Assembly: GCF_001652585.1 (NCBI RefSeq)
Contig: NZ_LWLG01000002.1
Span: forward strand, 1-32,000
Reading direction: 5' to 3'
DNA length: 32,000 nt
Source of the DNA: Thermosulfurimonas dismutans
GTDB lineage: Bacteria > Desulfobacterota > Thermodesulfobacteria > Thermodesulfobacteriales > Thermodesulfobacteriaceae
Position numbers and translations under genes: made by a program. Shown here piece after piece: positions 67 to 15,390 of the stretch (positions are counted from its first letter, which is position 1; each line of letters opens with the position of its first letter). The notes beneath the pieces are model-generated. The model had not been told where the DNA came from and ran no database searches. It saw only the letters and a program-made list of their open reading frames with translations.

Positions 67-87
67 AATATAAAAAAGTAGACAAAA

Positions 88-395
88 AGGTCTCCGGGTG
101 CCCCGCCCCTTTCGAGGCGGCGGGGTTAAACGGGAAGCCGGTGAGAATCCGGCGCTGGCCCGCAACCGTGACCGGGGACGAAAGCCGCTGGAGGTCGGGC
201 CTAACAGCCCGGCCTCTCGCCCGGGCGCTCGAGGGGGTGAACCCGAAGGGTTCCCGGGTGGGCCGCGGGGTCGCAAAGGGCCCTGTGGCGACAGGCCACT
301 GGGTGGGCCACGGACGTAGGTAGTCCGTAGGCCCCCTGGGAAGGCGCGGCGAGTAGGACGATCCGGAAGCCGGGATACCGGCCCGGGGGCCGAGA
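88..395 (+). promoter_or_regulatory. Cobalamin (B12) riboswitch aptamer
   Basis: Conserved core GGGAAGCCGGTGAGAATCCGGCGCTGGCCCGCAACCGTGA at 132-172. GCCACTG at 295-301, CTGGGAAGGCG at about 336-346, and B12-box-like AAGCCGGGATACCGGCC at 367-383. GC-rich helices include CCCCGCC/GGCGGGG at about 101-126. It sits directly 5' of a TonB-dependent receptor gene. Aptamer boundaries are approximate. Confidence 0.85.
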
Positions 396-499
396 AAGGG
401 AGCGGAGCTTCGAGGCTAACTGCTCCGTTCCCGAGTCGGAGAACGTGCCTCTGGGCCGCGGACCAGAGGCCTCTCCTCCTCGGGAACATTTCCTCGAAG

Positions 500-539: not shown

Positions 540-2459
540 ATGGCGAGAAGTTTTCTTCTGTTTCTGTTGGGCATGCTGGTCTTCGGATTTGCCGCGCCGG
601 TTACGGCTCAAACCTCCGCGGAGGAAGGAGCGGAGGTAGTGGTAACCGCCACGCGAGTTGAGACCGATGTGCGACACCTTCCGGACTCGGTGACGGTCAT
701 CTCCCGTGAAGACATAGACCGGCGGGAAGTCCAAGGGCTATACCAAGCTCTTGAGACCTATCCTTCCATATCCATCAAACACAACGGCTGGCTGGGACAG
801 TGGGGTTATCTGAGGCTTCGAGGAGGAAAAAGTCAGGATACAGCGGTGCTTTTTGATGGCGTACGTCTCTATGATCCTTCTTATCCCGCCAATGATTTCG
901 GAGATCTCTGGTCCTGGTTCGATGCCGAAAATTTCGAACGTATAGAAATTGTGCGTGGTCCCCAAAGTGCTCTTTATGGGTCCAACGCCATGACCGGGGC
1001 CGTAAACCTCATTCCCCGGAAAGGCGGAGGCCCCTTTGAGGCCCGCTTCAAAGGCGGTTACGGTCGCTACGATACTTGGCGTGGGACGGGCCATGTAAAA
1101 GGCTCCCTCGGGCCCCTCGGTTATTTCGTAGGAATCTCGGGGGTGAACACTGATGGTCTCTACCGAGATTCCGAATTCCGTCAGTCCACCGTAGACACTA
1201 ATCTAAATCTCACTCCCTTTGCTAACTCCTCAAACCGGATCCTGAAGACCCTCAAACTCGACTACACTCTCCGCTACGCTTACGGGTATCTCAATTACGG
1301 ACAGTGGGACTGGAAGAGCTTCAGAGCCTACAACGATCCTCATGCCGAACGCCGTCAGATCATCTTCCTCAATCATTTTACGGTGACTTTAAAACCTACT
1401 AAATGGTGGAACAGCAAATTAACTGCAGGTTACCATTTCACTAAAAGAGACTATCTTGACCGGGACGACGGGGTTCTGGCCTACAGAGCCGACGGCTCTC
1501 CGGTGACCGATAGTTACATGGATGGTCTTTATCGCGGAAAAGTCTATCCGGTGATCTTTCAAAACGACTTCTTTTACAAGGATTGGGTAATCCTCTCGGC
1601 TGGCATCGAATATTACAAAGAAAAAGGAGACTTTTATAATGCCTCTTCCTGGGGAACCAAGGAGTATGACGACGAGGTTTCGACTACCTCTTATTTTGCC
1701 AACCTTTTCCTATTGCCGATGGATGAGCGTCTCGCAGTGAACTTAGGGGCTCGCGTGGACGATCACGAAGAATTTGGCACGCACTTCACCTATAAGGTGG
1801 GCATGGCTTACTTCCTTACGGATACCTTGAAGATAAAAGCCAATTTAGCCACCGGTTTTCGGGCACCTTCCCTTTTCAATCTATATGATCCTCGCTACGG
1901 CAATCCGGATCTCGATCCGGAAGAAAGCACCGGCGGAGACATAGGTGTGGAACAGGAGCTTTTCGGCGGAAAACTTCGCTGGTCGGTCACCTGGTTCAAC
2001 ACCCACTATGAGGAACGCATAAGCTTCAACTATGCCACCTGGCATTACTACAATTCTGGAGGCGGAGTAGCTACCGGCCTTGAAACCGAAATAGAAAGTC
2101 GGCCCTATTCGTGGCTTTCCCTAGGGCTAAACTACACCTACACCGAAGGCCAAGAAGACGACACCGAAAACCTGGCCCTGGTGCCGCATCATCAAATAGG
2201 GGCCAGGGTCTCCTTTGAGTGGCAAAAATTACGTTTGAATCTCTACTACAAGTACGTAGGGCGCCGCCCGGCTTACGACCACAAACATATGATTGCCGAC
2301 TATAGCCGAGTGGACCTCACCGGGAGTTACGCCGTCACGGACTATGCTGAAGTGTTTTTCCGGGCGGAAAATCTCTTTGATGTGGACTACGAATGGGCCG
2401 CTGGTTATCGAGCCCCGGGCTTCAACCTTTTTGCGGGTATCAAGCTGAAGACCTTTTAA
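540..2459 (+). CDS. btuB: TonB-dependent outer-membrane receptor, BtuB-like (639 aa)
   Basis: Signal peptide MARSFLLFLLGMLVFGFAAPVTA-Q. TonB-box-like EVVVTATR. Plug motifs IEIVRGPQSALYGSNAMTGAVNLI. Beta-barrel ends in the aromatic residue ...GIKLKTF. Size is close to BtuB-type 22-strand receptors, and it lies immediately behind a B12 riboswitch. Confidence 0.85.
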   Translation: MARSFLLFLLGMLVFGFAAPVTAQTSAEEGAEVVVTATRVETDVRHLPDSVTVISREDIDRREVQGLYQALETYPSISIKHNGWLGQWGYLRLRGGKSQDTAVLFDGVRLYDPSYPANDFGDLWSWFDAENFERIEIVRGPQSALYGSNAMTGAVNLIPRKGGGPFEARFKGGYGRYDTWRGTGHVKGSLGPLGYFVGISGVNTDGLYRDSEFRQSTVDTNLNLTPFANSSNRILKTLKLDYTLRYAYGYLNYGQWDWKSFRAYNDPHAERRQIIFLNHFTVTLKPTKWWNSKLTAGYHFTKRDYLDRDDGVLAYRADGSPVTDSYMDGLYRGKVYPVIFQNDFFYKDWVILSAGIEYYKEKGDFYNASSWGTKEYDDEVSTTSYFANLFLLPMDERLAVNLGARVDDHEEFGTHFTYKVGMAYFLTDTLKIKANLATGFRAPSLFNLYDPRYGNPDLDPEESTGGDIGVEQELFGGKLRWSVTWFNTHYEERISFNYATWHYYNSGGGVATGLETEIESRPYSWLSLGLNYTYTEGQEDDTENLALVPHHQIGARVSFEWQKLRLNLYYKYVGRRPAYDHKHMIADYSRVDLTGSYAVTDYAEVFFRAENLFDVDYEWAAGYRAPGFNLFAGIKLKTF

Positions 2460-2674: not shown

Positions 2675-5600
2675 ATGTTAAACCTCCTATATTATACTTC
2701 AACCGGTACGGAGTTGCCCTCCCTCGAGAGGGCGGTAGCTGAGCTTCGGGCCGCAGGCCTACGCCTTAAGCTTGCAGTTTTCACCCGGGAAAGGGCTACC
2801 CTTGAGCGTAAAAAGCTTGAGGAGCTCGCCTCCCAGGCTGCAGCCCTAGTACTTGTCCCCCACGGAGGCGAGGAGAGCCTCCCGGGACTTGAAGGCCTTG
2901 TCTCTCGCTTCAAAGGCGAAATCATCCATGTGCAACCGGTCTCCGGAAGTCCGGCGGATCTTGAGCTAGTAGACAAATACGCCCGGCCGAAGGACGAGGC
3001 CTTTGGAGAGCGGGTCCGTTACCTTACCCTTGGTGGCCCGGAAAACCTCAAGAACTTCCTGCTGAAACTCCTTTCCGAGCTCGGCGAAGACGTGCCCGTA
3101 GCCGGTACTCCGGTTCCGTCTCCCACCGAAGGGATCTGGCACCCGGAAGGAGGCTTCTTTCCGGACCTTGAGACCTATCTCGACTTCCTAGAGCGGCGCT
3201 TTGGAAAAATTCCTCGCCCACTCGTGGGAATCTGGTTCTACCAGGGCTATTTCGTAAACGGGGATCTTGAACCGGTGAAAGATCTCGTCCAGGAAATCGA
3301 GGGCCTTTCGGCTGGGGCGCTTCCGGTCTTCCATCGAAGGTTCGTCTCCAAAGGCGAGGGGCTTCCGCCGACCGAGGTAGTGGAAAAGTTCTTCAAAAAG
3401 GAAGGCCTCAGCGTAATCCAGGCTCTAATCAATCTCCAGCCTTTTTCTCACCGACTCCTCTGGCCGGAGACTGAAAGGATCTATCCTGACCTCGATGTGC
3501 CCGTGCTTCAGGGGATTGTAAGTTTTGCTTCGCGCAAAAACTGGAAGGAATCCCCGGCAGGGCTCTCACCGCTTGAGGTCTCGGTTTCCGTGGCCCAGCC
3601 GGAGTTCGACGGCACTCTCATCACCTATCCTGTGGCCGGAAGGGATCAGGAAGAGGTCTCCGAGATCCTGGGGATCCCCATTCCGCGCCTAAAAACCATA
3701 CCGGAGGGGGTGCGCAGGCTTGCGAGGCTCGCCGTAAACTGGGCGCGCCTTAAACTTGTCCCCAACCGGGAAAAACGGGTAGCCATTGTCTTTCACCATT
3801 ATCCTCCTCGTGAGGACCGCATGGGCTGTGCCTTCGGACTGGACAGTTTTGAGTCCGTAGCCCGGCTCGTAAGGCGCCTTGCCGAGGAGGACTACGCCGT
3901 TGAAAAAGTATACGAGTCAGGCGAAGAGATCGCTCAAGAATTTCGAACCCGGCAAATTTACGACCGCCGCTATCTCTCGGAGACGGATCTCCTGACCAGG
4001 GCCCTCGTCAGGTGGCCGGTCGAGCGATTTCGTCCATATTTCGAACGGCTTCCGGAAGAAGCAAAGAAAAAACTTCGAGAGGCCTGGGGAGATTTTCCCG
4101 GCAAGTTTCTGGTCTCGGAAGGACAATTTCTCTTTTTTGGGATCCGGAATGGAAACCTGCTTCTCACACTTCAGCCCCCGCGGGGAAAGATCGAAAAGCT
4201 CTCGGCTGGCGACATCCACCGTCCGGACCTCCCGCCGCCCTATCATTATCTGGCTTTTTACACCTGGCTCAGGGAGGAATTTGGCGCCCAGGCCGTGATC
4301 CATGTGGGCAAACACGGAACCCTAGAGTGGCTTCCGGGGAAAGCCGTAGGTCTTTCCGAGGGCTGTTTTCCAGAGCTTGCCATCGCAGATCTTCCCAACC
4401 TCTATCCCTACATCGTAAACGATCCCGGGGAAGGCACACAGGGCCAAACGCCGAAGCTACGCCGCTATTCTAGATCACATGATCCCACCGCAGATGCAGG
4501 CCGGGCTTTCCGGCGAGCTCGCCGAACTCGCGGATCTACTGGAGGAATACCGCTCGCTTGCGGAGGAAAACCAGGCCCTGGCCGAGGAAACCCTGCGACG
4601 GATTCTTGCTAAAGGAAAAGAAACCGAGATCTTTAGCGAAATTTCAATCGGTTCCGAGGAGGCCGAAAGAGATCCGGAGAAATTTCTTTCGGCGCTACAC
4701 GACTACCTAGAAGAAGTAGCCGGAACTTATGTAAACCGAGGGCTTCATGTGTTGGGGAGGGTTCCAGAAGGTGAAGACCTGGAGGAAACCGTACGGGCCA
4801 TTCTGGAACATTCCGGAATGAGTAGAGAAGAGGTGAGGGGGCGTCTCTCGGGGATCCCGCAGGAGATGGCGCATCTGGTAAATGGGCTTTCCGGGGGCTT
4901 CGTGCCCCCGGGGCCCTCGGGGGCACCCACGAGGGGAGCGGTGGAGGTGCTACCCACCGGACGCAATTTTTTCTCCGTGGATCCTCTAAGGATCCCGACC
5001 CGCACAGCCTGGGAGCGAGGGGTGCGCCAGGCCGAGGCCCTGCTAGAAAGACATCGGCGGGACCATGGCCGGGTGCCCCGAACACTCGCCATGGTGCTCT
5101 GGGGCTCACCCACCATGCGTACCCGGGGCGAAGATTTCGCCTGTGCCCTCTGGCTCCTCGGGGTTCGCCCCCGCTGGAAAAACGACGGACGGATCTCCGG
5201 GGTGGAGGTGGTGCCGCTTTCCGAGCTCGGCCGGCCCAGGGTGGACGTCTGTCTTACGGTGAGCGGGTTTTTCCGGGACGCCTTTCGGAACTTGATGGAG
5301 CTCTTCGACCGCGCAGTGGCCGAGGTGGCTGCTATGCCGGAACCCCCGGAGATGAACCCCTTGGTGGAGGCCCTTAAAAGAGATCTTGAAGAACTTTGCT
5401 CCCAAGGACTTTCCCCGGAAAGAGCTCGCAGACTTGCCCTATTTCGGGTTTTTTCCGAACCTCCGGGGGCTTACGGCACCGGGGTGGAGACGGTGCTTGA
5501 CGCCGGAGCCTGGAAGAGTCGGCGGGATCTTGCCGAGGTTTTCCTTTCCACTATGGGCCACGCTTACGGAGAAGGGGCTTACGGAGCCGAAGCCAGGGAG

Positions 5601-6155
5601 GCCCTCCGCGGAGTGCTCTCCCGCACAGAGGTCACTTACAAGAACGAGGATACTCGGGAGATTGACATCCTTTCCTGTGATTGCTTCAACGCCTATCATG
5701 GAGGCCTAAATGCCACGGTGGAAGCTCTCTCTGGTCGCAAACCGGTTTCTTACTCCGCAAGCACCGCCGACCCGGAGCGCCCGGTGGTACGCACCACCGA
5801 GGAGGAAATGCGCTTTCTTTTCCGGATCAAGGTTTTGAACCCCCGCTGGATCGAAGGCCTGAAACAGCACGGCTTCAAGGGCGCGGGTGACCTCTCCCGG
5901 GTGGTGGACCTCATCTTCCAGTGGGACGCCACCAGCGATGTGGTCTCGGACCGCATGTACGAGGAGTTGGCCCGAACCTACGCCCTGGATCCCGGAATGC
6001 AGCGCTTCTTCCGAAAACATAATCCAGCGGCTCTTCTTAACATCGCCGAAAGGCTCCTTGAGGCCGCAAACCGCGGCCTCTGGCAGAACCCTGATCCTGA
6101 AGTCCTTAATCGCCTAAAGGACCTGGTGCTAGAGATGGAAAGGGAGCTTGAATGA
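2675..6155 (+). pseudogene. cobN: CobN-family chelatase large subunit (about 1160 aa if repaired), split by a single-nucleotide frameshift at about 4441-4443
   Basis: Two ORFs, 2675..4612 and 4479..6155. Frame 1 reads ...NDPGEGTQ and then turns into junk. The +1 frame continues AKRRSYAALLDHMIPP..., together restoring the conserved CobN/ChlH block NDPGEGTQAKRRS-x-A-x-x-DH-x-PP. Other CobN-like blocks: HVGKHGTLEWLPGK and VLPTGRNFFSVDP. It may be a true pseudogene or a sequencing error in a GGG run. Confidence 0.8.
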
Positions 6156-7348
6156 TCGAAGTAATCAAACCCTACGAAGGACTGGTGATAAAGCGCGGGG
6201 AAAGGATCCTCTTCGGGGAATTCTTAAAGCCCCATACCGTGATCTCCACCTGCCGGGTAAACGGCGGTCTTAGGAGCGGCCTCAGGTTCGTAGCCAATCA
6301 TCAGGCCTGCGAGCCCAAACCCCATCCCGAATGCGGGCACGGGGCCTGTCTGGCCAGCCGTGAGCCTAAGCGCTATCACCGTCTAATCTGCGAATATCAC
6401 GGACTGTCTCCGGAGGAAACCGCCCTCCTTGGCACGGCGGCCAACATGGCTCTAGCGGGCTTCGCGCGGAAGACCTTTCGGGGCCTTACCGTCTTCTGTG
6501 CGGCCACTGCCGGGGTGGAGACCAACGCCGGAAGGGCCGGGGACCCGGCCTCCTTCTATGAAGAGGATGGACGTTTCATAAAGATTTCCGACGAATCTTC
6601 CTTAAATAAGGCCCCGGCCTGCGATCGACGTGGAACCATCGTGCTCATGGTTTTTGTGAACCACGCCCTTACTCCCGGGGCCCTGGTGCGCGCGGTCAAA
6701 ATGGCCACTGAAGCCAAGGTCACGGTACTCGAGGAGCTACATGTGCCTTCGCGTTACTCCTGTGGCCGGGCCACAGGTACCGGCACGGATCAGATCGCAG
6801 TGGCGGCCCTTGAGTCCGGAAGACGCCCCCTTTCCGGTGCAGGAAAACATGTGAAACTCGGAGAACTGATCGCCCTTTCTGTGCGCGAGGCCCTTTTTCA
6901 AGCCCTGGCCCTTCAGAACAAACTTACCCCTGACCTCATACGCTACGCCCCGCGTCTTCTCGAGCGCTATGGCCTGAATGAAGAGGCCTTGCTTGCGGCC
7001 CTCAAGGATTACCTTCCGTCTCCGGTCTACGAGTGGCTCGTTCGCAATGTGCGTCCGGTTTTCGGAGACCTCGGACTAGTCTCTCACCTCATGGCCTATC
7101 TTCACCTCTGGGACCAGGTGTGCTACGGCGTGATACCGTCCGAGATAGCCGGTGAGGTCCTCCTGGACCAGGCGGCCCTTATCGCCTGTGCCCTTTCTCA
7201 GCGGCGAGGAGATTTTGGCCGATACCTTAAGGAGCTTGCCCAGCACAAAGCGGACCCGAAAAAACTCCTCCTTGCGGCCCTGGCTCTAGGATTTACCGCC
7301 AAGTGGCACCATCCTCTGGGGCAGGCCGTAGGCGTGATCCCTGGATGA
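6152..7348 (+). CDS. cbiZ: CbiZ-like adenosylcobinamide amidohydrolase domain with a C-terminal helical extension of about 150 aa (398 aa)
   Basis: Motifs recalled from the CbiZ family: STCRVNGGL, LGTAANM, GTIVLMVFVNHALTPGALVRAVKMATEAKVTVLEEL, ATGTGTDQIAVAA. The ATG overlaps the cobN stop (ATGA at 6152-6155). The family call is from memory of motifs and was not searched. Confidence 0.6.
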   Translation: MIEVIKPYEGLVIKRGERILFGEFLKPHTVISTCRVNGGLRSGLRFVANHQACEPKPHPECGHGACLASREPKRYHRLICEYHGLSPEETALLGTAANMALAGFARKTFRGLTVFCAATAGVETNAGRAGDPASFYEEDGRFIKISDESSLNKAPACDRRGTIVLMVFVNHALTPGALVRAVKMATEAKVTVLEELHVPSRYSCGRATGTGTDQIAVAALESGRRPLSGAGKHVKLGELIALSVREALFQALALQNKLTPDLIRYAPRLLERYGLNEEALLAALKDYLPSPVYEWLVRNVRPVFGDLGLVSHLMAYLHLWDQVCYGVIPSEIAGEVLLDQAALIACALSQRRGDFGRYLKELAQHKADPKKLLLAALALGFTAKWHHPLGQAVGVIPG

Positions 7349-9108
7349 AACGAATTGGTCACCTCTCAATAAGGGGCTGCTTTGTCGTAGGGCTGGCTCT
7401 CCTTATGGTTTTAGGGTTAGGGGCCTGCCGAAAGAGGCCGGAGTCCCAACCACAGGTTGTCTTTGGCCCAATGGGCTTGGAAATTTCAGGACTTCCCGAA
7501 AAGACTCCGGTTAAGCTATACGATACTTCGGGAAAGCTCCTTCTAGCATATCCTCCGCTTCCTAGCCGGGATCTCCTCCTAATTTTTCCCTGGCAGCCGC
7601 GTGAAACCTACCACCTTGTGGCAGGAAGTTTCTCTTTACGGCTTCAAAGCCCTGATTCACGGCCCCTAGCCGAAATCGAGGTCTTTGCCCCTCTTGGAAG
7701 CCCGGGAAGACGATTTTTGATCTTTGAGACGGGTCCCATTAAGCCCGAGGAGTTCGTCATCCTCTCAAAAGACCCCTGCCCGGAGGTGGGCTTCCTGATA
7801 ACTTCCTTTGTTTCTGAACTTCCGGTGCGTATTCCAACCTTCGAGAAAACCCTTGTCCTTTCCGGAGAATTCGATCGGCACCTTTTTCACCACCGGATCT
7901 GCCTCGCACCCGAGGTTCCACGTAGGATCACGCTGATCACTGGGAAAAGGCGTCTTTCCCTGCTCTTCAAACGAATGGTCTTTGATCTCAAAGGCAAGGT
8001 CAAACTCGTCTCTTGGCGAGTGCCCACCGAAGAGTCAGGTTATAGCCTACGGTATAGGCGAGAAGGGCTTCTAGTGGTTCCGAATCCTCTCTTCGAGCGT
8101 CTGGGTTATCTTTTGGGAATAAAGGCTCAGGGATTTTCCCGCTACGCCCCCTTTGCCTATCAGACCTTGGTCCTCAAAAATCTCACCGGCTCCCCGCTCA
8201 ACCTCCTGGTGAAAGCCGACTTTCTGGACCCCAAGACCGGGAAGCCGGTTCCAGGTTTTTATCCCCCGCGCTTCGGCATGATCGGGCACTTTAAAAAACC
8301 CCTGGCCCTGGTGTATCTTCCCCCACATGGAAATGCGCAGGTGGTCCTGCCCATTTACGTGGAGGGCGTGTCTCCAGGCGAGTATGTGGCCCGGGTGGCG
8401 GTCTATCCCCTGGGAGAGGAAAAACCCCTTTTCGTTAAGGCGCGTCGGATAGGAGTCACCCGCGGGAGCCCGTGGCTTGCCGCCGGGCTCTTGATGATCC
8501 TGGCCACTGGGGCCCTTTATAGCGGGGCCATTTTCCTCGGTCTTCGCCGGCTCCTTTCCGGCTTCAATCTCCGAGAGCTCTCCCTGGTGGCCTTGGCCGG
8601 GGCCGTGGCCTTCGGGCTGGACTTCCTCGGGGGGCTCCTCTCGAACATCCTCTACGCCTTTCTCGGTCCTTTCAACATTCTGGTCGGGGGGCTCGTCACC
8701 GAGGTGGTGCACTACGCAGTCTTCACCGCGGTGCTGGTATTGGTGCCGAGGCCGGGGTTCGCCACCCTCTCCGGACTCCTACATTACCTCATGGGCCTTA
8801 CGCTTTTCGGAGGCTTGCGGGCTACGGATCCCTTTTTCCTCGGGGCCAGGTTATTTGTGATCGAGGCGTGCCTGTTTCTCTTCCGAGGTTACCGCAGACC
8901 CTGGGGCGGGCGCACGGTCCTGGCCCTGGCGATAGCCGACGCCATAAACACCCTCACCTCTCTCGTCCTTCACATGACCTTTTACCGGCTCTTTTTTCCG
9001 GGCTGGTACCTCTGGCTTTCGCTTCTCGTAAAGGGCTTCCTTTACACCCTCATCGGGGCCTGGCTCGGCGCCCGCATGGGGAAACACCTCCTGGGAATGG
9101 AGCGATGA
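7345..9108 (+). CDS. Lipoprotein-signal protein: soluble domain of unknown function (about 345 aa) fused to a C-terminal domain with 6-7 TM helices. Positional candidate for the ECF substrate-capture (S) component
   Basis: I prefer the ATG at 7345 (ATGA overlap with the upstream stop) over the track start at 7303. N-terminus is MKRIGHLSIRGCFVVGLALLMVLGLGA-C (lipobox L-G-A-C). Hydrophobic helices run from about nt 8467 (WLAAGLLMILATGALYSGAIFLGL ... WYLWLSLLVKGFLYTLIGAWLGA). It lies immediately upstream of, and overlapping, the ECF ATPase gene. Confidence 0.6.
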   Translation: MKRIGHLSIRGCFVVGLALLMVLGLGACRKRPESQPQVVFGPMGLEISGLPEKTPVKLYDTSGKLLLAYPPLPSRDLLLIFPWQPRETYHLVAGSFSLRLQSPDSRPLAEIEVFAPLGSPGRRFLIFETGPIKPEEFVILSKDPCPEVGFLITSFVSELPVRIPTFEKTLVLSGEFDRHLFHHRICLAPEVPRRITLITGKRRLSLLFKRMVFDLKGKVKLVSWRVPTEESGYSLRYRREGLLVVPNPLFERLGYLLGIKAQGFSRYAPFAYQTLVLKNLTGSPLNLLVKADFLDPKTGKPVPGFYPPRFGMIGHFKKPLALVYLPPHGNAQVVLPIYVEGVSPGEYVARVAVYPLGEEKPLFVKARRIGVTRGSPWLAAGLLMILATGALYSGAIFLGLRRLLSGFNLRELSLVALAGAVAFGLDFLGGLLSNILYAFLGPFNILVGGLVTEVVHYAVFTAVLVLVPRPGFATLSGLLHYLMGLTLFGGLRATDPFFLGARLFVIEACLFLFRGYRRPWGGRTVLALAIADAINTLTSLVLHMTFYRLFFPGWYLWLSLLVKGFLYTLIGAWLGARMGKHLLGMER

Positions 9109-10475
9109 GGAAGGCTTCGATCAGGGTAAAAAATCTTTCTTATCGCTATCCCGAAGGAACGGGTCCGGCCCTTGAGGGCATAAGTTTTGAGGTCCGGCCT
9201 GGGGAAGTGTTTCTTTTGGCTGGAGAAACTGGTTCCGGAAAGAGCACCCTTCTTTCCGTGCTATGTGGTCTCATCCCGGCGGAATCCGGGGGCGAGTTCT
9301 CCGGGAAAGTGGAAGTGCTGGGGCGCCAGTGGCCGGTTGCTCCCGGGGAGATCTTTCCAGAGGTAGCGGTTGGCTTCCAGAACCCAGCAGAACACCTCCT
9401 TGCGGAAACGGTCTTTGCCGAGGTGGCCTTCGGACTTGAGAACCTGGGGTTTTCCCCTCTGGAGATTCGGAAGCGAGTGGCCGAGGCCCTGGAAAGTGTG
9501 AATCTTTCTGGTTTCGAGGACCGAAGGCTTTCTGAGCTTTCTGGAGGCGAGCGCCAGCGGGTGGCCCTGGCCGCGGCTCTCGCGGTGAAACCCCGGTTGC
9601 TTCTTCTCGACGAACCTCTGGCCCAACTTGACCCTCAGACGGCCCACAGGGTGATGACCATTCTGCGGACCTTAGCGAACAATGGCCTCACGGTGATCCT
9701 TGCCGAACACCGGTTAGACCTGGCCCTCGGCTTTGCCGATCGGGTATGTTTTCTCGAAGGTGGACGCGTGGCCTTCTGTGGACCGAGTAAAGATTTCCGC
9801 CCCCCGGCCCGAAAATTTCCTCTTTTGCCCCGAGCCCGCCCCGGAGAAGTGCTGATAAGCCTGCGGGATCTGGCTTTTGCCCGTCCCGGAAAATCCGAGG
9901 TCTTCCGGGGGATTACCCTTGACTTTCGTGCCGGAGAAAGGGTGGCCCTTTTAGGGCCCAACGGCTGCGGTAAAACTACTTTTCTACATCTTTTGGCCGG
10001 GCTCCTAGAGCCCACCGCCGGTCGGATAGAGATCCGAACTAAAGCCCCAACCGGAAGCCTTCTCGTGGGGCTTCTCCTTCAGGATCCGGATCTCATGCTC
10101 ATAAGAGAAAGCGTATACGCGGAGCTAGCCTTTACCCCGGAAAACCTAGGGCTTTCCGAAAAAGAAATCCAGCGTCGGGTTAAATTGGTAGCTGAAAAGC
10201 TGGCCCTTTCCGATTTCCTTGATAGGGTTCCCTTTGCCCTTTCCCGGGGTCAACGTCTGCGGGTAGCCCTGGGCTCGGTTATCACCGGCCATCCCCGCAT
10301 CTTGCTTCTCGACGAACCCACCACTGCCCAAGATCCTCGGAACACCGCCCGCCTGCTCGCTACGCTCTCGGCGGATCTCGTGATCTTCTCCACCCACGAC
10401 GAGGAGGTGGCCCGGGTACTGGCTACGCGCGTGCTGCGCTTCGAAGATGGGGAGATCAGGGAGGTCAACAAATGA
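9105..10475 (+). CDS. Fused double ATPase of an ECF-type (CbiO/EcfA-A'-like) ABC transporter (456 aa)
   Basis: True start is MRKASIRVKNLSYRY at 9105 (ATGA overlap); the track start at 8868 lies inside the upstream gene. NBD1: GETGSGKST, LSGGERQRVALA, LLLLDEP. NBD2: GPNGCGKTT, LSRGQRLRVALG, ILLLDEPT. Confidence 0.85.
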   Translation: MRKASIRVKNLSYRYPEGTGPALEGISFEVRPGEVFLLAGETGSGKSTLLSVLCGLIPAESGGEFSGKVEVLGRQWPVAPGEIFPEVAVGFQNPAEHLLAETVFAEVAFGLENLGFSPLEIRKRVAEALESVNLSGFEDRRLSELSGGERQRVALAAALAVKPRLLLLDEPLAQLDPQTAHRVMTILRTLANNGLTVILAEHRLDLALGFADRVCFLEGGRVAFCGPSKDFRPPARKFPLLPRARPGEVLISLRDLAFARPGKSEVFRGITLDFRAGERVALLGPNGCGKTTFLHLLAGLLEPTAGRIEIRTKAPTGSLLVGLLLQDPDLMLIRESVYAELAFTPENLGLSEKEIQRRVKLVAEKLALSDFLDRVPFALSRGQRLRVALGSVITGHPRILLLDEPTTAQDPRNTARLLATLSADLVIFSTHDEEVARVLATRVLRFEDGEIREVNK

Positions 10476-11308
10476 ACACCAGAAAACTTCACCCCTATAC
10501 CAAGTTCGGAGTCTCGTTTCTGGTCTCCGGACTCTCGGTGATCTTGGACCGACCCCTCTCCCTTGCGGTCCTGACCAGCCTAGCCCTTGTCCTTCTCCTG
10601 CTCTCAAGACCCGGGCGACAGATCCTTAAGACCTACCTCTTACTTACAGTGACTACCGTCTGGGGGATCATGGTGAGCCAGGGACTCTTTTATCAGGAGT
10701 ATCCGCGCACGGTGCTCTTCTGCCTGATACCCCCGGGAGAACACTTCGCTGGTTTGTGTTTCATAAAAGAGGGTTTCCTTTACGGGTTGATCCAGTCCCT
10801 GCGTCTGGTGGCCGCCCTTTCGGCCGGCCTCTATCTCGTGACTTCAACCCCGCAGGAGGCCTTCTTCCGAGCGGTCTCGGCCCTTCCGCTTCCTAGAGGA
10901 CTAACGCTTATGGCGGTCTCGGCCGTGAGGTTTCTACCCACGGTAGCTGAGGACCTCAGACTGATAAGGAAAGCCCTGCGTTTAAAAGGTTACCGGCCCT
11001 TGAAACGGGGAATCCTCTACACGATCAAGGTAGAGCTTTCAGTAATCTACCCGCTGCTTTCCCAAGCGGTGAGGCATTCGCGCTCCTTGGCCGACGCCCT
11101 TCTCACCAGGGGCTTTGATCCGTTGTCTCCCTCAAGGAGGCTCTTTCTTTCCCCCTGGCCCAGGCCTGAAAAGATCTTGACCGTACTCCTTTTGTTGTTG
11201 GGTTTAGGGGTGTTCGTTCTCAAGGTTTTGTTTTGGCTTTATCTCCAGGAGGTCCTTTATGTTGAAAGCCTGCGTCCGCTCTATGCCCTGGTGCGCAACT
11301 TTCTTTAA
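10472..11308 (+). CDS. ECF transporter transmembrane (T) component, CbiQ/EcfT family (278 aa)
   Basis: N-terminal LHPYTKF. Coupling-helix motifs IRKALRLKGY and LADALLTRGF (A-x-x-x-RG type). Multiple TM helices. ATGA overlap with the ATPase gene. Confidence 0.8.
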   Translation: MNTRKLHPYTKFGVSFLVSGLSVILDRPLSLAVLTSLALVLLLLSRPGRQILKTYLLLTVTTVWGIMVSQGLFYQEYPRTVLFCLIPPGEHFAGLCFIKEGFLYGLIQSLRLVAALSAGLYLVTSTPQEAFFRAVSALPLPRGLTLMAVSAVRFLPTVAEDLRLIRKALRLKGYRPLKRGILYTIKVELSVIYPLLSQAVRHSRSLADALLTRGFDPLSPSRRLFLSPWPRPEKILTVLLLLLGLGVFVLKVLFWLYLQEVLYVESLRPLYALVRNFL

Positions 11309-11312
11309 AACT

Positions 11313-12179
11313 TTATTTTCGGAGCTTGCGCCTTTTTCTTTCGGCTTCAAGAAGGGTCTCCGGCTTTCCGGAAAATTCCGCCCCGGAGACTACCTGGACG
11401 CCGCGGCCTTCAGCAGCCTCAAAAAGGGGCTCAGCCCAACGCCGCCAGTAAAGGTCCCGGAGGAGATGATGGTCAAGGATAAGGTTTCTCGGGGAAACCT
11501 CACGGAGAATGCGAAGAAGGTTCGCCCGGGCTACTTCCAGGGCCTTGAGACCAAAGCGCGGCCCCAAGTAGGTAGATGGACCGTCCACGAAAAGGATATC
11601 TGGTCTTTGAGTCAAAATGAAATCCACGGCCTCTTCCAGTACCGGGCCGGAAACATCCGAGGAGTGAAGGAAGGTCGTCCCGCCTTCCCGCACCGCCACC
11701 GAGACCACGCAGCCGAAACGGGCCTCCGGTCCATGCCAGAGCGGTCCGGAAACTACGATTTCTCCCCCGAGAAGCTCAATTCGCCGTCCCTCAGCTACCT
11801 CCCAGCGGACTCCGGCCCGGATAAGTCTCTCAATAAACTCCCCGGCTCGCCGGGCCTGATTGCGATTGATGTTCCGCACTGGATCCTTGATGAAGAGGAG
11901 TTTTCCCTGAAGATCTCCCGCCCAGTCCGGGCTGTAGTGGTCGAAATGGTAGTGGGTGATGAAAACGATCTCTGCTGTCCGGAGTCTTTTCCGAATAAGC
12001 TCCCGGAGTTCGGCCAGCCTCGCAATCTCGATCTCGTCCGGGGGAAGGCCGTAGCGCTTCGGACCGAGAGCTGCTCCGGGGTCTATGAGGATCTTCGTTC
12101 CGCAGGCCTCCACCTCCACCGCCATAGAGCGCACCCCGAGGCTCTCGGAGGCCAGCACCTCAATCCTCATAACGCCCAT
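11313..12179 (-). CDS. Metallo-beta-lactamase-fold hydrolase (288 aa), UPF0282-like
   Basis: H-x-H-x-DH motif in ITHYHFDHYSP. Later HSSD and LDHH metal-ligand-like motifs. The sequence is coherent and globular, unlike the antisense + strand ORF. Confidence 0.7.
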   Translation of the reverse strand: MGVMRIEVLASESLGVRSMAVEVEACGTKILIDPGAALGPKRYGLPPDEIEIARLAELRELIRKRLRTAEIVFITHYHFDHYSPDWAGDLQGKLLFIKDPVRNINRNQARRAGEFIERLIRAGVRWEVAEGRRIELLGGEIVVSGPLWHGPEARFGCVVSVAVREGGTTFLHSSDVSGPVLEEAVDFILTQRPDILFVDGPSTYLGPRFGLKALEVARANLLRILREVSPRNLILDHHLLRDLYWRRWAEPLFEAAEGRGVQVVSGAEFSGKPETLLEAERKRRKLRK

Positions 12180-12236: not shown

Positions 12237-13676
12237 GTGATCCTGGCTCTATTCTTGCTACCTCGTATGAGTTTCGCCGAACGGTTTCGGGCCTTTGGGC
12301 TGAACCTTCTTTGGGAACACCCCCTGGGCGACATCTCCTTTCATGTGCGGGCCGGCCATACCCCGGATTCCTTCGTACGGTTTTCTCCGGACGGACGCCT
12401 CCTGGCGGTGGGCACCTTGAAGGGGGACCTTTTGGTCTTTGAAAGTCTCACCGGAAAACTTGTTCTCCGGAAGAAGATACCCGAGGCCATGGTGAAACGA
12501 GTGGCCTTTTCTCCAGACGCAAAGCGCCTCTACTACGGAGAGCAGAGCCCAGAGGGCGCGGTGTGTGCCCTTGAGCTTCCTTCCGGTAAAACCCTCTGGT
12601 GTTTCCGCACCGCCGGGGACCTCCTGCGGGGGGAGCCTCCTCTCCCAGGGGATCTCTACGGTATTTACCGGCTTCCCGGCATATACCGGCTGAAAATCTT
12701 ACGGGACGGCGATCTTCTCGTGCTGGGCATCCACTCTTGGTACGACCGAAAGCTCCGGATTTGGCGCAGGCTTTCGCGCCTTTATCGCTTAAGCCCTAAA
12801 GGGAAGATACGCTGGGCCTATCCCTCAGACGGTCCGGCCCCGGTAAATATCATCTACGCGGACTCCGATCCTTCCGGAAAAAGGGTGGCCTTGGTGGCCC
12901 TTCTTCCTTCGGAATATAAGGAAGATCTCTCCTTAAAAGGACCACCACCTCAGAGCTTCGTGGCCCTTGATGGAAGAACCGGAAGAAAGCTCTTTCATTT
13001 CACGCTTTCGCCCTTGAAACCTTACTTCGACCGGGTTTCGGCCTGGGAATCGGTGGCCGTTTCTCGAGATGGACGCTTCGCTATACTCGGCACCACCGAT
13101 GGAAGGCTTTTTGTCTTTGACCTAGAGAAGAAGAGCCTCCACCGCCTCCTCACCCTGGCCACTCCGATCATCCTGGGGGGGTTTCCGGTTTCGGCCTCCC
13201 TGGGGTATGGTCTCTTCGGGCCGGATGGCCTCATCTATGTGGTCTCCGGTGAAAGCACTCTGCCCTACGGTCTGCCTCTGGCCGTAGATCGGCCGGCCGG
13301 ACCGCACCCTGCAGCGCGCACCCTTTTTGCCGTAGACCCCAAAACAGGGGCCATCCTCTGGCGCTTCACCTCACCCGTAAAGCTCCAGGGACTTTCTTCC
13401 GACGCCACCGGACGCACCCTTGCGGTATGCACCGGAGCCTTCCGCAAAGAGGCTTTACGGGTACGCCAGTTTGGCGTGCTGGTCTTCGACCTCAAAAAGG
13501 AAGGGGGCGGCCTTTCCAAATTGGTGGGTTATTTTCCCACCGCCGGGACCTGTTTCTTCCATCTGGCAGTCTCTCCCGACGGCCATCTCATCGCGGCCGT
13601 GGAGACTCCCTGGCGCGACGAAATCGGCCGCCTTTACGGCAAACACCGCCTCCTCGTCCTCCGCCGATCTCCCTAA
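12237..13676 (+). CDS. Beta-propeller (WD40/PQQ-like) repeat protein, possibly exported
   Basis: Repeated blade motifs: FSPDGRLLAVGTLKGDLLVFE, FSPDAKRLYYGE, VSRDGRFAILGTTDGRLFVFD, SSDATGRTLAVCTG, VSPDGHLIAAVE. Start is uncertain. GTG at 12237 gives a hydrophobic N-terminus (ILALFLLPRMSFA); ATG at 12267 is the alternative. The track's 805-aa ORF (from 11259) is an antisense artefact upstream of about 12200. Confidence 0.65.
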   Translation: MILALFLLPRMSFAERFRAFGLNLLWEHPLGDISFHVRAGHTPDSFVRFSPDGRLLAVGTLKGDLLVFESLTGKLVLRKKIPEAMVKRVAFSPDAKRLYYGEQSPEGAVCALELPSGKTLWCFRTAGDLLRGEPPLPGDLYGIYRLPGIYRLKILRDGDLLVLGIHSWYDRKLRIWRRLSRLYRLSPKGKIRWAYPSDGPAPVNIIYADSDPSGKRVALVALLPSEYKEDLSLKGPPPQSFVALDGRTGRKLFHFTLSPLKPYFDRVSAWESVAVSRDGRFAILGTTDGRLFVFDLEKKSLHRLLTLATPIILGGFPVSASLGYGLFGPDGLIYVVSGESTLPYGLPLAVDRPAGPHPAARTLFAVDPKTGAILWRFTSPVKLQGLSSDATGRTLAVCTGAFRKEALRVRQFGVLVFDLKKEGGGLSKLVGYFPTAGTCFFHLAVSPDGHLIAAVETPWRDEIGRLYGKHRLLVLRRSP

Positions 13677-13862: not shown

Positions 13863-14609
13863 ATGGAAACCGTGCTTGAGGTCCGGAACCTGGTCAAGGA
13901 TTTCGGAGGCCACAGGGCCCTTTCAGGGGTAAATTTTGTCCTTTCACGGAGAGAATTTCTGGGAATCATCGGCCCAAATGGAGCCGGAAAGACCACGCTC
14001 CTCAACTGCCTTCTCGGCCTGATCACCCCCACGAAGGGAGAAATCCGGTTTTTCGGTCTCGAGCTCGAAAAACACCAGGTCTATATCCTTTCCAGGATTA
14101 ATTTCGCCTCAAACTATGTAGGACTCCCCTTATCCCTTACCGTCTTTGAGAATCTTGTGGTTTACGGTCTGCTTTACGGGGTTTCGGAAATAAAGGCCCG
14201 AGCCGAGCGGTTGCTCAAGCTTTTCGGACTGTGGGAAATGCGGAATCAGAAGACCCGTCATCTCTCCTCAGGTCAGATGATGCGTCTATGTCTGGCCAAG
14301 GCCCTGATGAACGATCCAGAGGTGCTGCTCCTTGACGAACCTACCGCCGGACTTGACCCGGAGATAGCCGAAAGGGTCCGCAAATTAATCAAGGCTTATC
14401 AAAGAGAAAAGGGCCTTGCGGTCATCTTCACCTCCCACAATCTACACGAAATGGAAGAACTCTCGGATCGTGTGATCCTCCTCAATAAAGGTCAGATCCT
14501 CGCCGAGGGCCCACCGCAGGAACTCTGCCGCCGTTTTGGGGCTAAGAATCTTGAGGAAGCCTTCTTCAAGGCCCTAGATCTTTGGGAGGCCGAGAATGTT
14601 GAGGGCTAA
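13863..14609 (+). CDS. ABC transporter ATP-binding protein (ABC-2/DrrA-like exporter type, 248 aa)
   Basis: Walker A GPNGAGKTT, signature LSSGQMMRLCLAKAL, Walker B LLLDEPTAGLD. Followed by an overlapping ABC-2 permease gene. Confidence 0.85.
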   Translation: METVLEVRNLVKDFGGHRALSGVNFVLSRREFLGIIGPNGAGKTTLLNCLLGLITPTKGEIRFFGLELEKHQVYILSRINFASNYVGLPLSLTVFENLVVYGLLYGVSEIKARAERLLKLFGLWEMRNQKTRHLSSGQMMRLCLAKALMNDPEVLLLDEPTAGLDPEIAERVRKLIKAYQREKGLAVIFTSHNLHEMEELSDRVILLNKGQILAEGPPQELCRRFGAKNLEEAFFKALDLWEAENVEG

Positions 14610-15390
14610 AAGGATTCTCGGAGTAGTGGCCAGACAGGTCTTTCTCTATCGACGGAGCTTCAGCCGAATCCTGGATCTCTTCTACTGGCCCACCATGGAC
14701 ATCCTTCTCTGGGGTTTTCTTACCCTTTACCTTGAACGGGGAACCCTCCATCTTCCCCGTTTTGTTTCCTTCTTCCTGGGGGCCCTCATCCTCTGGCACA
14801 TCCTCTACCGTTCCCAGATTGCGGTCTCGGTATCCTTCCTTGAGGACATCTGGTCCCGTAATCTCCTCAACCTTATGGTGGCCCCTTTAACCCTTACGGA
14901 ATACATGCTCGGTCTTATCACCGTAAGCCTAATCAAGGTCTCTTTAGCCTTCACCATCATGGCCTCGCTTGCGGGTCTCTTTTACGGCTTCAACATCTTT
15001 AAGCTCGGGGTAAGCCTCATACCTTTCGTGGTGAATCTTTTGGCCCTTGGTTGGGCCATAGGTTTTGTGACCATAGGCTTTATCTTCCGTTTCGGGCAGG
15101 AAGCCGAGATCCTGGCCTGGGCTTTGGCCTTCGTGTTTCTGCCGCTCTCGGCAGTTTTCTATCCGCTTTCGGTGCTTCCGCCCATTATCCGGGATCTAGC
15201 TTGGTTTACTCCCTCGGCCCATGTCTTTGAGGGCATGCGGGCCGTAATCGAAAATGGCACCATCCCCTTGAGACACCTTATCTGGGCCACGGGGCTTAAC
15301 CTCGCCTATCTCTCCTTCGGGGCTTGGTTCATGCGTCGCCAGTACGAATATGCCCGCGAGAAAGGAACCATTCCTAAGATAGGAGAGTAG
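14596..15390 (+). CDS. ABC-2 type transporter permease (264 aa)
   Basis: Six predicted hydrophobic helices and a typical ABC-2 layout. Overlaps the ATPase stop by 14 nt. Confidence 0.75.
   Translation: MLRAKRILGVVARQVFLYRRSFSRILDLFYWPTMDILLWGFLTLYLERGTLHLPRFVSFFLGALILWHILYRSQIAVSVSFLEDIWSRNLLNLMVAPLTLTEYMLGLITVSLIKVSLAFTIMASLAGLFYGFNIFKLGVSLIPFVVNLLALGWAIGFVTIGFIFRFGQEAEILAWALAFVFLPLSAVFYPLSVLPPIIRDLAWFTPSAHVFEGMRAVIENGTIPLRHLIWATGLNLAYLSFGAWFMRRQYEYAREKGTIPKIGE

Follow-up and report, generated by a model that had tools for sequence, protein, structure and literature searches.

The window analysed here, 32,000 nucleotides at the start of contig NZ_LWLG01000002.1 of Thermosulfurimonas dismutans, contains an operon in the order cobalamin riboswitch, BtuB-like receptor, CobN, CbiZ, the protein that is the subject of this work, a fused double ATPase (EcfAA') and EcfT (Table 1). 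The receptor has its best NCBIfam match in TIGR01779 (TonB-B12), which at 247 bits is under the equivalog cut-off. The fused ATPase matches ECF_ATPase_1 and ECF_ATPase_2 best, and the cbiO model TIGR01166 above cut-off. CobN, in two pieces here, is one ORF of about 1200 residues in its relatives. Homologues of the propeller possess signal peptides or lipoboxes. No second candidate membrane S subunit was found in the window operon. An ABC-2 exporter pair lies downstream in the window; its permease recurs in one other locus only, so it is not a conserved neighbour.

Table 1 Features of the operon, of the 587-residue protein and of the adjoining genes.
Feature	Position (nt)	Strand	Basis
Cobalamin riboswitch aptamer, operon head	79-400	+	Rfam RF00174, 52.8 bits (gathering score 31.5), full model 1-189
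TonB-dependent outer-membrane receptor, BtuB-like	540-2459	+	Pfam Plug and TonB_dep_Rec_b-barrel
CobN-type chelatase large subunit, two overlapping ORFs (2675-4612, 4479-6155)	2675-6155	+	PF02514 profile 2-475 (first ORF), 679-1089 (second)
CbiZ adenosylcobinamide amidohydrolase (corrinoid salvage)	6152-7348	+	PF01955, 185 bits
Predicted lipoprotein signal peptide with lipobox LGA-C (residues 1-28)	7345-7428	+	Sequence reading; hydrophobic segment 3-31; Cys28 invariant
Beta-sandwich domains D1 and D2 (residues 29-215), predicted extracytoplasmic, variable family part	7429-7989	+	AlphaFold2 strands 37-114, 122-211
Beta-sandwich domain D3 (residues 216-373), predicted extracytoplasmic, family-wide with the membrane domain	7990-8463	+	Profile positions 209-580 = shared core
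Extra helix TM0 (376-398) and basic, predicted cytoplasmic linker (LRRLLSGFNLRE)	8464-8568	+	Hydropathy, models
S-component-like six-helix domain (residues 409-587) and stop codon	8569-9108	+	Domain model, Foldseek
Fused double ABC ATPase (EcfA-EcfA')	9105-10475	+	Two ABC_tran domains
ECF T component (EcfT/CbiQ)	10472-11308	+	PF02361, 66 bits
MBL-fold gene between EcfT and propeller in the window	11313-12179	-	
Secreted WD40/PQQ-like beta-propeller (start uncertain), conserved fourth gene of the module	12237-13676	+	Pfam PQQ_2 and WD40-type matches

The gene and its family

Translation of nucleotides 7345-9108 (+ strand) gives a stop-free product of 587 residues; a GTG at 7303 would lengthen the same ORF and is merely its mechanical first start. 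The start overlaps the stop of CbiZ by ATGA (7345-7348) and the stop overlaps the ATPase start in the same way (9105-9108). CbiZ is directly upstream in most loci of the close clade. The gene is real and no chance ORF, because it has 24 close homologues of 574-668 residues and a profile search returned 433 clusters. The product reads as a lipoprotein-type precursor: its N-terminus, MKRIGHLSIRGCFVVGLALLMVLGLGA followed by cysteine, has a positive n-region, a hydrophobic core and then an L-G-A-C lipobox (residues 25-28) that fits the pattern [LVI][ASTVI][GAS]C. Cys28 is invariant in 25/25 close homologues (alignment A1), and among the 165 family members with at least 500 residues, 85 have a lipobox-like motif in their N-terminal 70 residues. 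Both the lipobox and the overlaps with the two neighbours had been described in the earlier note and are borne out.

The protein belongs to a large family without a name, whose members are encoded next to a secreted beta-propeller and an ECF motor, frequently downstream of vitamin-B12 riboswitches. At least 433 clusters at 50% identity were recovered by the profile search at E <= 1e-3, 266 of them at E <= 1e-30, and almost all top-ranked members examined keep the N-terminal domain. Human-gut metagenomes are also rich in the family. Relatives include 90%-identity clusters with 251 and 5071 members and are found on human-gut metagenome contigs, some behind cobalamin riboswitches. No curated family of Pfam or NCBIfam, S-component families included, matches the T. 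dismutans protein. PDB sequence searches with the whole protein and with profiles A1 and A2 found no S-component and no chain of significant similarity; WD40 matches of profile A1 were rejected as spurious, as they add up many stretches of 0.6-2.6 bits against a single short motif of repeat proteins. When A2 and A3 were used in word-index protein searches, the matches consisted of fragments or of those 24 close homologues. The only sub-threshold Pfam matches that recur among relatives are to two S-component families, PF09605 and PF09819 (E ~0.002-0.01, a handful of relatives); those to PF09819 have E-values from 0.0019 to 0.012 and occur in 2/23 and 1/51 of the relatives scanned.

Gene neighbourhoods were compared across 105 loci, with counts of nearby genes taken from 37 well-covered metagenomic loci. 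The conserved module comprises the gene itself, the double ATPase, EcfT and the secreted propeller, and it is conserved between very distant clades, gene calls showing it also where identity is 25-33%. In 18/20 and 52/62 loci the gene is followed immediately by the double ATPase. Of the 37 metagenomic loci, 34 have EcfT close by, 35 the propeller and 17 a TonB receptor; the propeller, rather than the TonB receptor, is on these counts the more likely extracytoplasmic partner. Homologues are overwhelmingly beside ECF genes, the earlier note having asked whether they occur mostly elsewhere. EcfT is absent within 10 kb in L001 and L005, and L051, L058 and L059 have no ECF genes nearby. The paralogue at L019 has no ECF module of its own, and a second copy in the same MAG has one; this supports assignment as an S-component, since modular S-components can stand in this way. 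Gut-type loci encode a further exporter-fold ABC half-transporter. Proteins of unknown function that adjoin the gene in L005, L026 and L028 are unrelated to its product, to the propeller or to one another.

Domain architecture and fold

No hydrophobic segment is present in residues 29-373 (nt 7429-8463). AlphaFold2 models this part as all-beta, with three sandwich domains (approximately 37-114, 122-211 and 219-373) and a mean pLDDT of 84. D1-D2 is the least conserved region, and many distant members align only from about profile position 200 onwards. Conservation of D3 nearly equals that of the membrane domain: P227, G232 and P336 are invariant, and the conserved loops GFSRY (~260-266) and FYPPRFG (305-311) coincide with or adjoin stretches modelled at low confidence (260-263 and 310-315). 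A Foldseek search with the full-length model retrieved only tandem Ig-like proteins (SiiE, RbmA, alpha-2-macroglobulin, NCX1 CBD) at TM <= 0.17, matches which say just that the N-terminal part consists of beta-sandwiches. The domain has no recognisable binding motif and its fold matches are generic Ig-like. The domain does not show the substrate-binding-protein fold of ABC importers (class A-F; two alpha/beta lobes and a hinge), as it is predicted to be all-beta, with three sandwiches, one short helix and Ig-like/FnIII-like matches only. A role of the domain in capture or hand-over is conceivable.

Seven helices follow from residue 376 (nt 8470), at 376-398, 409-437, 445-466, 472-488, 495-512, 522-546 and 553-586. 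DSSP joins the second and third of these into one, and the split was placed at the conserved GPFN turn. The linker after TM0 contains three Arg, consistent with the positive-inside rule, and the Arg/Lys-rich loops (399-410, 468, 514-523, 577-587) are on the predicted cytoplasmic side. From the lipobox, the seven helices and the distribution of these loops, we predict that the N-terminal domain is outside, that the six-helix core is N-in/C-in and that TM0 is additional to it. TM0 may serve to bring the chain back to the cytoplasm, the side on which an S-component has to begin.

The model of the six-helix domain (pLDDT 90.9, pTM 0.86) has as its top Foldseek match in the PDB the S-component YkoE (5edl; probability 1.00, TM 0.51/0.54, rmsd 4.7 over 190 columns), with a weak E-value (0.03) and a TM of ~0.5. 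ThiT (3rlb) is the second consistent match (TM 0.45/0.53). These two are the only S-components among the 50 listed matches; the others have TM <= 0.33 and rmsd of ~9 or more. Helix 1 carries an AxxxA motif, A416-L-A-G-A420, with a small residue at position 416 in 98% and at 420 in 84% of 51 diverse members. The motif is reported to distinguish S-components docking on ECF modules from MreD and 5TMR kinases, which lack it although they share the fold (PMC11109136). G441, P442, G471, E507 and R548 are invariant. Residues conserved family-wide gather on the periplasm-facing side, in GPFN (loop 1), D495 (loop 3), YRLFF..WY with R548 (loop 5) and E507 (helix 4). The family has no invariant Cys or His to serve as a cobalt ligand, and the membrane domain has no invariant Cys.

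The layout sketched in the earlier note, a beta-rich soluble part of about 345 residues ending near nt 8466 and six or seven hydrophobic helices after 8467, agrees with these models. From the lipobox and the charge distribution the N-terminal domain is predicted to lie outside the cytoplasm rather than within it, and the structural comparison it called for does find similarity between the C-terminal half and S-components (5edl and ThiT, TM ~0.5).

Proposed function and its alternatives

We propose that the protein is probably the substrate-binding, translocating S-component of a dedicated ECF-type ABC importer with EcfAA' and EcfT, and that it imports a corrinoid. The assignment of the C-terminal module to the adjacent ECF transporter, as the earlier note had it, is argued for by the fold, the AxxxA motif of helix 1, the topology, the neighbourhood at 105 loci and the L019 paralogue. 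In T. dismutans the BtuB-like receptor would let the corrinoid through the outer membrane, after which it would be bound by the six-helix domain in a periplasm-facing pocket, where the conserved residues gather. Import would then follow as is usual for ECF systems, with the S-domain toppling against EcfT at the expense of ATP, and the imported corrinoid would be processed by CbiZ for re-use. Most speculatively, the secreted propeller might act as soluble carrier or binding partner, and the conserved, membrane-proximal D3 with the variable D1-D2 might form a platform above the pocket for docking or hand-over. Toppling could be hampered by so bulky a domain on a tether, a point that counts against assignment as an S-component.

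The link to B12 comes from regulation and from neighbouring genes. Upstream cobalamin riboswitches (RF00174) are present in the window and in 12 homologous loci (L001, L005, L007, L008, L010, L014, L016, L019, L028, L051, L067, L083), which span distant clades and include human-gut contigs. No riboswitch was found in many of the loci scanned for RNA families (for example L003, L024-L027, L029, L030, L098, L087), and distant loci L024, L029 and L030 have neither riboswitch nor B12 genes within 10 kb. CbiZ, CobN, CbiK, CbiC or CobT is adjacent in several loci. From these associations we infer a corrinoid substrate, either cobinamide or a cobamide.

Cobalamin riboswitches control cobalt transporters too. 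An S-component with a substrate other than an intact corrinoid, that is free or chelated cobalt or a molecule related to B12 (a metal-free corrinoid precursor, for example, or a lower ligand), is nevertheless unlikely. Such a substrate would fit the T and A components, which score best against CbiQ/CbiO-type models, the CobN-type chelatase encoded in the window, in L008, L016, L018, L019 and L026 and in several metagenomic loci, and the CbiK gene that heads the L001 operon. The family as a whole offers no Cys or His as axial ligand for cobalt, and the invariant Glu and Arg are potential ligands of an ion or a carboxylate. However, CbiZ, whose substrates are cobinamide and cobamides, is in the close clade translationally coupled to the gene, and the receptor matches the B12 receptor family best. 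CbiM and NikM, like the present protein as predicted, have seven helices with the N-terminus outside. The protein does not group with these metal S-components: PF01891 (CbiM/NikM) has no match, and a free N-terminal metal-binding end is impossible where TM0 and 345 residues precede the six-helix domain.

It is very unlikely that the S-fold domain is instead a non-transporting anchor that couples ECF-like ATP hydrolysis to work done by the N-terminal domain and propeller in the periplasm, such as removal of corrinoid from a carrier or from the receptor. The six-helix fold does occur in non-transporters, namely MreD and the 5TMR-LYT sensor kinases, and the kinases have an extra N-terminal helix, H0 (N-out, C-in), which resembles TM0 (PMC11109136, PMC11482812). 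The near-membrane-level conservation of extracytoplasmic D3 and the near-constant propeller neighbour would suit an anchor, and the exporter-fold half-transporter of gut-type loci could be the real translocator there. Yet AxxxA, reported lost in non-transport S-fold proteins, is kept in this family; MreD and the kinases lack both the motif and ECF modules, whereas the family has AxxxA, EcfAA' and EcfT. Moreover, the most conserved residues map to helix 4 and the loops that face the periplasm, the site of substrate binding in S-components, and loci like the window have no other inner-membrane translocator in the operon.

The idea that the long ORF is an artefact, a lipoprotein gene and a small S-component gene joined through a wrongly called start or an error in sequencing or assembly, might draw on the normal size of ECF S-components (160-230 residues) and on the frameshift that the neighbouring CobN gene does have, but it has next to no probability and is rejected: a single ORF of ~550-700 residues recurs across independent genomes as well as metagenomes, N-terminal extensions in 114 family members with a complete C-domain have a median length of 370 residues (5th percentile, 302), the sole short extension among those 114 is a fragment, and the top matches include no stand-alone version, so that the architecture is conserved across the family.

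Relation to known B12 and ECF systems

ECF importers are taught as needing no extracytoplasmic binding protein, and S-components as small membrane proteins that topple freely. If it is an importer, a large, widespread family whose S-fold is permanently joined to ~350 extracytoplasmic residues and co-encoded with a propeller would change that picture, and would raise the mechanical question of how a tethered S-fold topples. The earlier statement that ECF importers do without soluble binding proteins holds as this general picture but not as a rule without exception, one having already been proposed in NikK, the periplasmic additional component of NikKMLQO (PMC2868824). Tentatively, the family may be an undescribed class of ECF importer that uses extracytoplasmic proteins, its S-component having a built-in Ig-like platform and a dedicated secreted propeller to capture and hand over corrinoids. 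On this proposal it could be the missing inner-membrane B12 route in many diderms that have BtuB and lack BtuCDF, a recognised gap (PMC6072759), including very abundant human-gut organisms, probably Bacteroidota. The clusters of 251 and 5071 sequences, the gut contigs and the riboswitches suggest that the family may matter to gut corrinoid competition. In the literature consulted, no S-component was found described as having an extracytoplasmic domain, and no ECF module as including a propeller; the comparative study of Rodionov et al. 2009 is outside that scope and may hold a prior mention.

The protein has no Pfam match to PF09819, the family of which CbrT is presumably a member, and no PDB sequence match, with the single sequence or with profiles, that would show homology to CbrT. 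ECF-CbrT of Lactobacillus delbrueckii, an ECF transporter able to import cobalamin and cobinamide (PMC5997447), is comparable in having an S-component, EcfT and two ATPase domains and, by inference for our protein, in its class of substrate. As with CbrT-type systems, the locus combines B12 regulation by a riboswitch with B12-gene neighbours. CbrT, from a monoderm, is small and purely membrane-embedded, whereas the present protein adds a lipobox, ~345 extracytoplasmic residues and an extra helix, its ATPases are fused and its module includes a secreted propeller. CbiMNQO, NikMNQO and NikKMLQO are likewise dedicated (group I) ECF systems with extra components, and the T component here is CbiQ-like. 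In contrast to the separate proteins CbiN and NikK, the extra part is an array of beta-sandwiches attached covalently.

BtuM, a solitary S-component-like B12 transporter of Gram-negatives linked to btuB (PMC6072759), shares the fold, B12 uptake across a diderm inner membrane (predicted for our protein) and the btuB linkage. BtuM is ~22 kDa, works free of an ECF module and has a Cys ligand; the present family has a full ECF module. BtuCD-F (type II, with periplasmic BtuF) and ABC importers with fused substrate-binding domains offer a functional analogy, an ATP-driven B12 step after BtuB that uses an extracytoplasmic part. BtuCD-F differs in membrane fold and mechanism, and the all-beta, Ig-like N-terminal domain differs from the alpha/beta fold of binding proteins. 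For the secreted propeller of the module, a possible analogy is BtuG, a surface beta-propeller lipoprotein of Bacteroides that binds B12 (PMC6143338, PMC10404256). Sequence similarity between the two was not detected, the module propeller matching only WD40/PQQ-type repeats; the likeness is that of a propeller encoded in a B12 uptake locus.

Domain architecture and topology

The ATG start gives a typical lipoprotein precursor (MKRIGHLSIRGC-FVVGLALLMVLGL-GA/C) and overlaps the CbiZ stop as ATGA; a mechanical list of open reading frames placed the start upstream, at GTG 7303. At the other end, the stop shares bases with the start codon of the following gene (GCGATGAGG). An alignment with 24 close homologues (39-90% identity, 574-668 aa, from Thermodesulfobacteriota and Desulfobacterales) shows no exception to the lipobox Cys, and conservation is highest in the C-terminal membrane part. 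In a hydropathy scan, a single hydrophobic segment at the N-terminus is followed by a stretch free of such segments (residues 32-376) and then by closely spaced ones from 377 to 576. The lipobox, long soluble N-terminal domain, multi-helix C-terminal domain and ATGA overlaps with both neighbours that the earlier note described are thus all present.

Features of the operon (nucleotide positions) and of the lipoprotein it encodes (residues)
Feature	Position	Strand	Remark
Operon			Riboswitch, BtuB-like receptor, CobN, CbiZ, lipoprotein, fused double ABC ATPase (EcfAA'), T component (EcfT), in this order
Cobalamin riboswitch	79-400
CobN-type chelatase gene	2675-6155		Two overlapping ORFs in different frames, 2675-4612 and 4479-6155
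CbiZ	6152-7348		398 aa
Lipoprotein ORF	7345-9108	+	587 residues, ATG start at 7345
MBL-fold gene (PRK04286-type)	11313-12179	-	Between EcfT and propeller
Beta-propeller	12237-13676	+	Last gene of the operon, after EcfT and the inserted MBL gene
ABC ATPase and ABC-2-type permease	13863-15390		After the propeller gene
Signal helix	N-terminus		AlphaFold2 model
Beta-sandwich domains D1, D2, D3	37-114, 122-211, 219-373		Strands in AlphaFold2 model
TM0 helix	376-398		AlphaFold2 model; six more helices follow
Conserved membrane-domain residues	G441-P442-F443; R548-L549..W554-Y555; E507

The full-length AlphaFold2 model, built on the close-homologue alignment, has a mean pLDDT of 84 and a pTM of 0.59, so the domains are good and their mutual placement is uncertain. 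Its only structural matches were generic tandem Ig-like proteins. Residues 372-587, modelled alone on a more diverse alignment, gave a pLDDT of 90.9 and a pTM of 0.86. As read from the sequence, Arg and Lys are abundant in four stretches: the linker after TM0 (LRRLLSGFNLRE), turn 467-471 (VPRPG), loop 513-523 (FRGYRRPWGGR) and the tail at the C-terminus (RMGKHLLGMER). Loops 437-444 (GPFN), 489-495 and 545-553 are not rich in them. This pattern, taken with the lipobox, predicts that the 345-residue N-terminal domain lies outside the cytoplasm, facing the periplasm as first proposed. TM0 is predicted to cross the membrane inwards, and both ends of the six-helix core are predicted to be inside. 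In S-components, the substrate-binding membrane subunits of ECF importers, both ends of the core lie on the cytoplasmic side. Since the N-terminal domain would be outside and the core would start inside, TM0 would be a topological necessity of the fusion; a 2024 survey of the S-component fold describes a comparable N-out helix, H0, ahead of that fold in 5TMR sensor kinases (PMC11109136).

In the same survey, Partipilo and Slotboom identify AXXXA in helix 1 as what lets S-components dock on EcfT, and report it missing from the non-transport proteins of this fold, MreD and the 5TMR kinases (PMC11109136). Helix 1 of the lipoprotein has A416-L-A-G-A420, and among 51 members sharing 20-69% identity Ala, Gly or Ser occupies position 416 in 98% and position 420 in 84%. 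Residues that are invariant or nearly so across the family lie mostly in periplasm-facing turns and helix 4, the substrate-binding region of S-components; the exceptions are G471 and P468, on a cytoplasmic turn. No curated family model matches the protein. The only sub-threshold Pfam matches that recur among some 70 relatives scanned (E 0.002-0.012) are to PF09605 (Trep_Strep) and PF09819 (ABC_cobalt), both of which we take to be ECF S-component families, and these are a hint rather than family membership. The membrane domain thus resembles an S-component in fold, motif, topology and context, and not by sequence family; we file it as an S-component, in a system that looks like a dedicated ECF transporter.

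Gene neighbourhood and the secreted propeller

Thirty loci with homologues of the lipoprotein came from exact look-up and a genome scan, and 80 more from a metagenome scan with a motif of a distant subgroup (342 relatives found in all); neighbours were annotated by iterated searches seeded with the window proteins. Where enough downstream DNA was available, the double ATPase lies directly downstream at 18 of 20 and 52 of 62 loci. An ECF gene is near in 11 of the 12 well-covered loci of the first set. Of the 37 amply flanked metagenomic loci, 34 have EcfT nearby, 35 the propeller, 32 the double ATPase and 17 a TonB receptor. Homologues clearly do not occur mostly away from ECF genes, the pattern that the earlier note named as counting against its reading. 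Departures from this linkage were also seen: EcfT and propeller are encoded divergently in L008, no EcfT lies within 10 kb in L001 and L005, L051 and L059 have the homologue and propeller without ECF genes, and L058 has neither. In L019 a paralogue (9950-11734) sits behind its own receptor, CobN and CbiZ, and is followed by enolase on the opposite strand, with no ECF module; L017, another contig of the same metagenome-assembled genome, carries a copy with the ATPase and ECF module. Such a pairing would be modular S-component behaviour.

The propeller gene accompanies the lipoprotein gene and its homologues as regularly as EcfT does and can lie on either side of them (L024, L027-L030, L032, most of L031-L110 and the window). 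Its homologues, of about 460-560 aa, have signal peptides or lipoboxes, resemble only WD40/PQQ repeats in sequence, and are annotated as hypothetical or 'BamB'. This protein is a candidate periplasmic partner, so far undescribed, of an ECF transporter. Because of the inserted MBL gene, an insertion shared by the closest relatives (L009, L010), the propeller frame in the window lacks a good start; GTG 12237, TTG 12255 and ATG 12267 are candidates, and the signal peptide is truncated. A pair similar to the ABC ATPase and ABC-2 permease lies ahead of the homologue in L003; since the permease was found in only one other locus (L059), the pair is probably unrelated.

Substrate and proposed mechanism

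A same-strand cobalamin riboswitch precedes the module in the window and eight close-clade loci, and also in L051, L067 (a human-gut contig) and L083, where it stands directly before the homologue in a gut-type gene order; in L028 it directly precedes a homologue of about 30% identity. Many other searched loci have no riboswitch, and the distant L024, L029 and L030 have neither riboswitch nor B12 genes within 10 kb. B12 neighbours across the loci are CbiZ, CobN with partner subunits, CbiC, CbiK and CobT. The substrates of CbiZ are cobinamide and cobamides in need of remodelling (cited in PMC8620254), and ECF-CbrT carries both cobalamin and cobinamide (PMC5997447), which together make a corrinoid the most likely substrate. 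The chelatase genes and the CbiQ/CbiO-like motor leave some probability for cobalt or a different compound related to B12.

The riboswitch match in the window is 322 nt long for a model of 189 positions, and its score of 52.8 bits is below the 80-107 bits of the riboswitches in relatives; this suggests a large insertion in a variable loop. L005 has two cobalamin riboswitches with near-identical scores (2354-2584 and 5564-5794), one of them upstream of a gene of unknown function with exbB/exbD/tonB after it, the other upstream of the receptor gene. The Pfam CbiZ domain covers only residues 24-247 of the window CbiZ, and homologues, at 380-401 aa, retain the C-terminal extension of about 150 aa. 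CobN is a single ORF of about 1200 aa in L008 and L010; the split in the window may be genuine, as a frameshift or pseudogene, or may come from a sequencing error near 4479-4612.

Our proposal starts from the established domain composition, predicted topology, S-component fold, docking motif, four-gene module and B12 regulation. The substrate would pass from the periplasm into the six-helix pocket, and toppling on EcfT, driven by ATP, would release it inside. What the N-terminal domain does is the weakest step. D3 is almost as conserved as the membrane domain, and two of its most conserved motifs, GFSRY and FYPPRFG, coincide with or adjoin the only loops that are modelled with low confidence, a placement compatible with an interface or a gate above the pocket. 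The variability of D1-D2 is as would be expected of a spacer or a partner-specific surface. The constant outside partner is the secreted propeller and not the TonB receptor, which favours a putative relay from propeller through D1-D3 to the pocket over direct hand-over from the receptor.

Precedents and distribution

Unlike every described S-component found, the lipoprotein has a covalently attached extracytoplasmic array and an extra helix, and its module a constantly linked propeller gene. Among the nearest precedents are CbiM and NikM, which are seven-helix proteins. Others are NikK, proposed as a periplasmic component of NikKMLQO (PMC2868824), and BtuM, a B12 transporter of diderms with the S-component fold (PMC6072759). 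The fusions listed in the available text of the 2024 survey are with cytoplasmic domains and NRAMP only, and the words 'periplasmic' and 'extracytoplasmic' are absent from that text (PMC11109136). Nothing closer appears in the literature searched, outside which lies the founding 2009 comparative paper.

The finding carries weight because the family is broad, abundant on human-gut contigs and easy to test. An exhaustive profile search gives at least 433 clusters at 50% identity, and for 266 of these E is <= 1e-30. Members are mostly 550-700 aa long, and every source that names one calls it a hypothetical protein. Among 114 listed members with a complete C-terminal domain, the length of the N-terminal extension is 370 aa at the median and 302 aa at the 5th percentile; only one protein is short, and it is a fragment. 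The common core comprises D3 and the membrane domain (profile positions 209-580), and D1-D2 are the variable part. A lipobox-like motif occurs in about half of the long members; in human-gut forms an ordinary signal peptide takes its place. Clusters at 90% identity reach 251 and 5071 members. The human-gut contigs (L067, L071, L078, L087, L094-L104 and others) have a GC content of 0.38-0.51 and the order TonB receptor, sometimes a single ABC ATPase, lipoprotein homologue, EcfAA', EcfT and propeller, followed by an exporter-fold ABC half-transporter (ABC_membrane + ABC_tran). Cobalamin riboswitches lie upstream of some of these copies.
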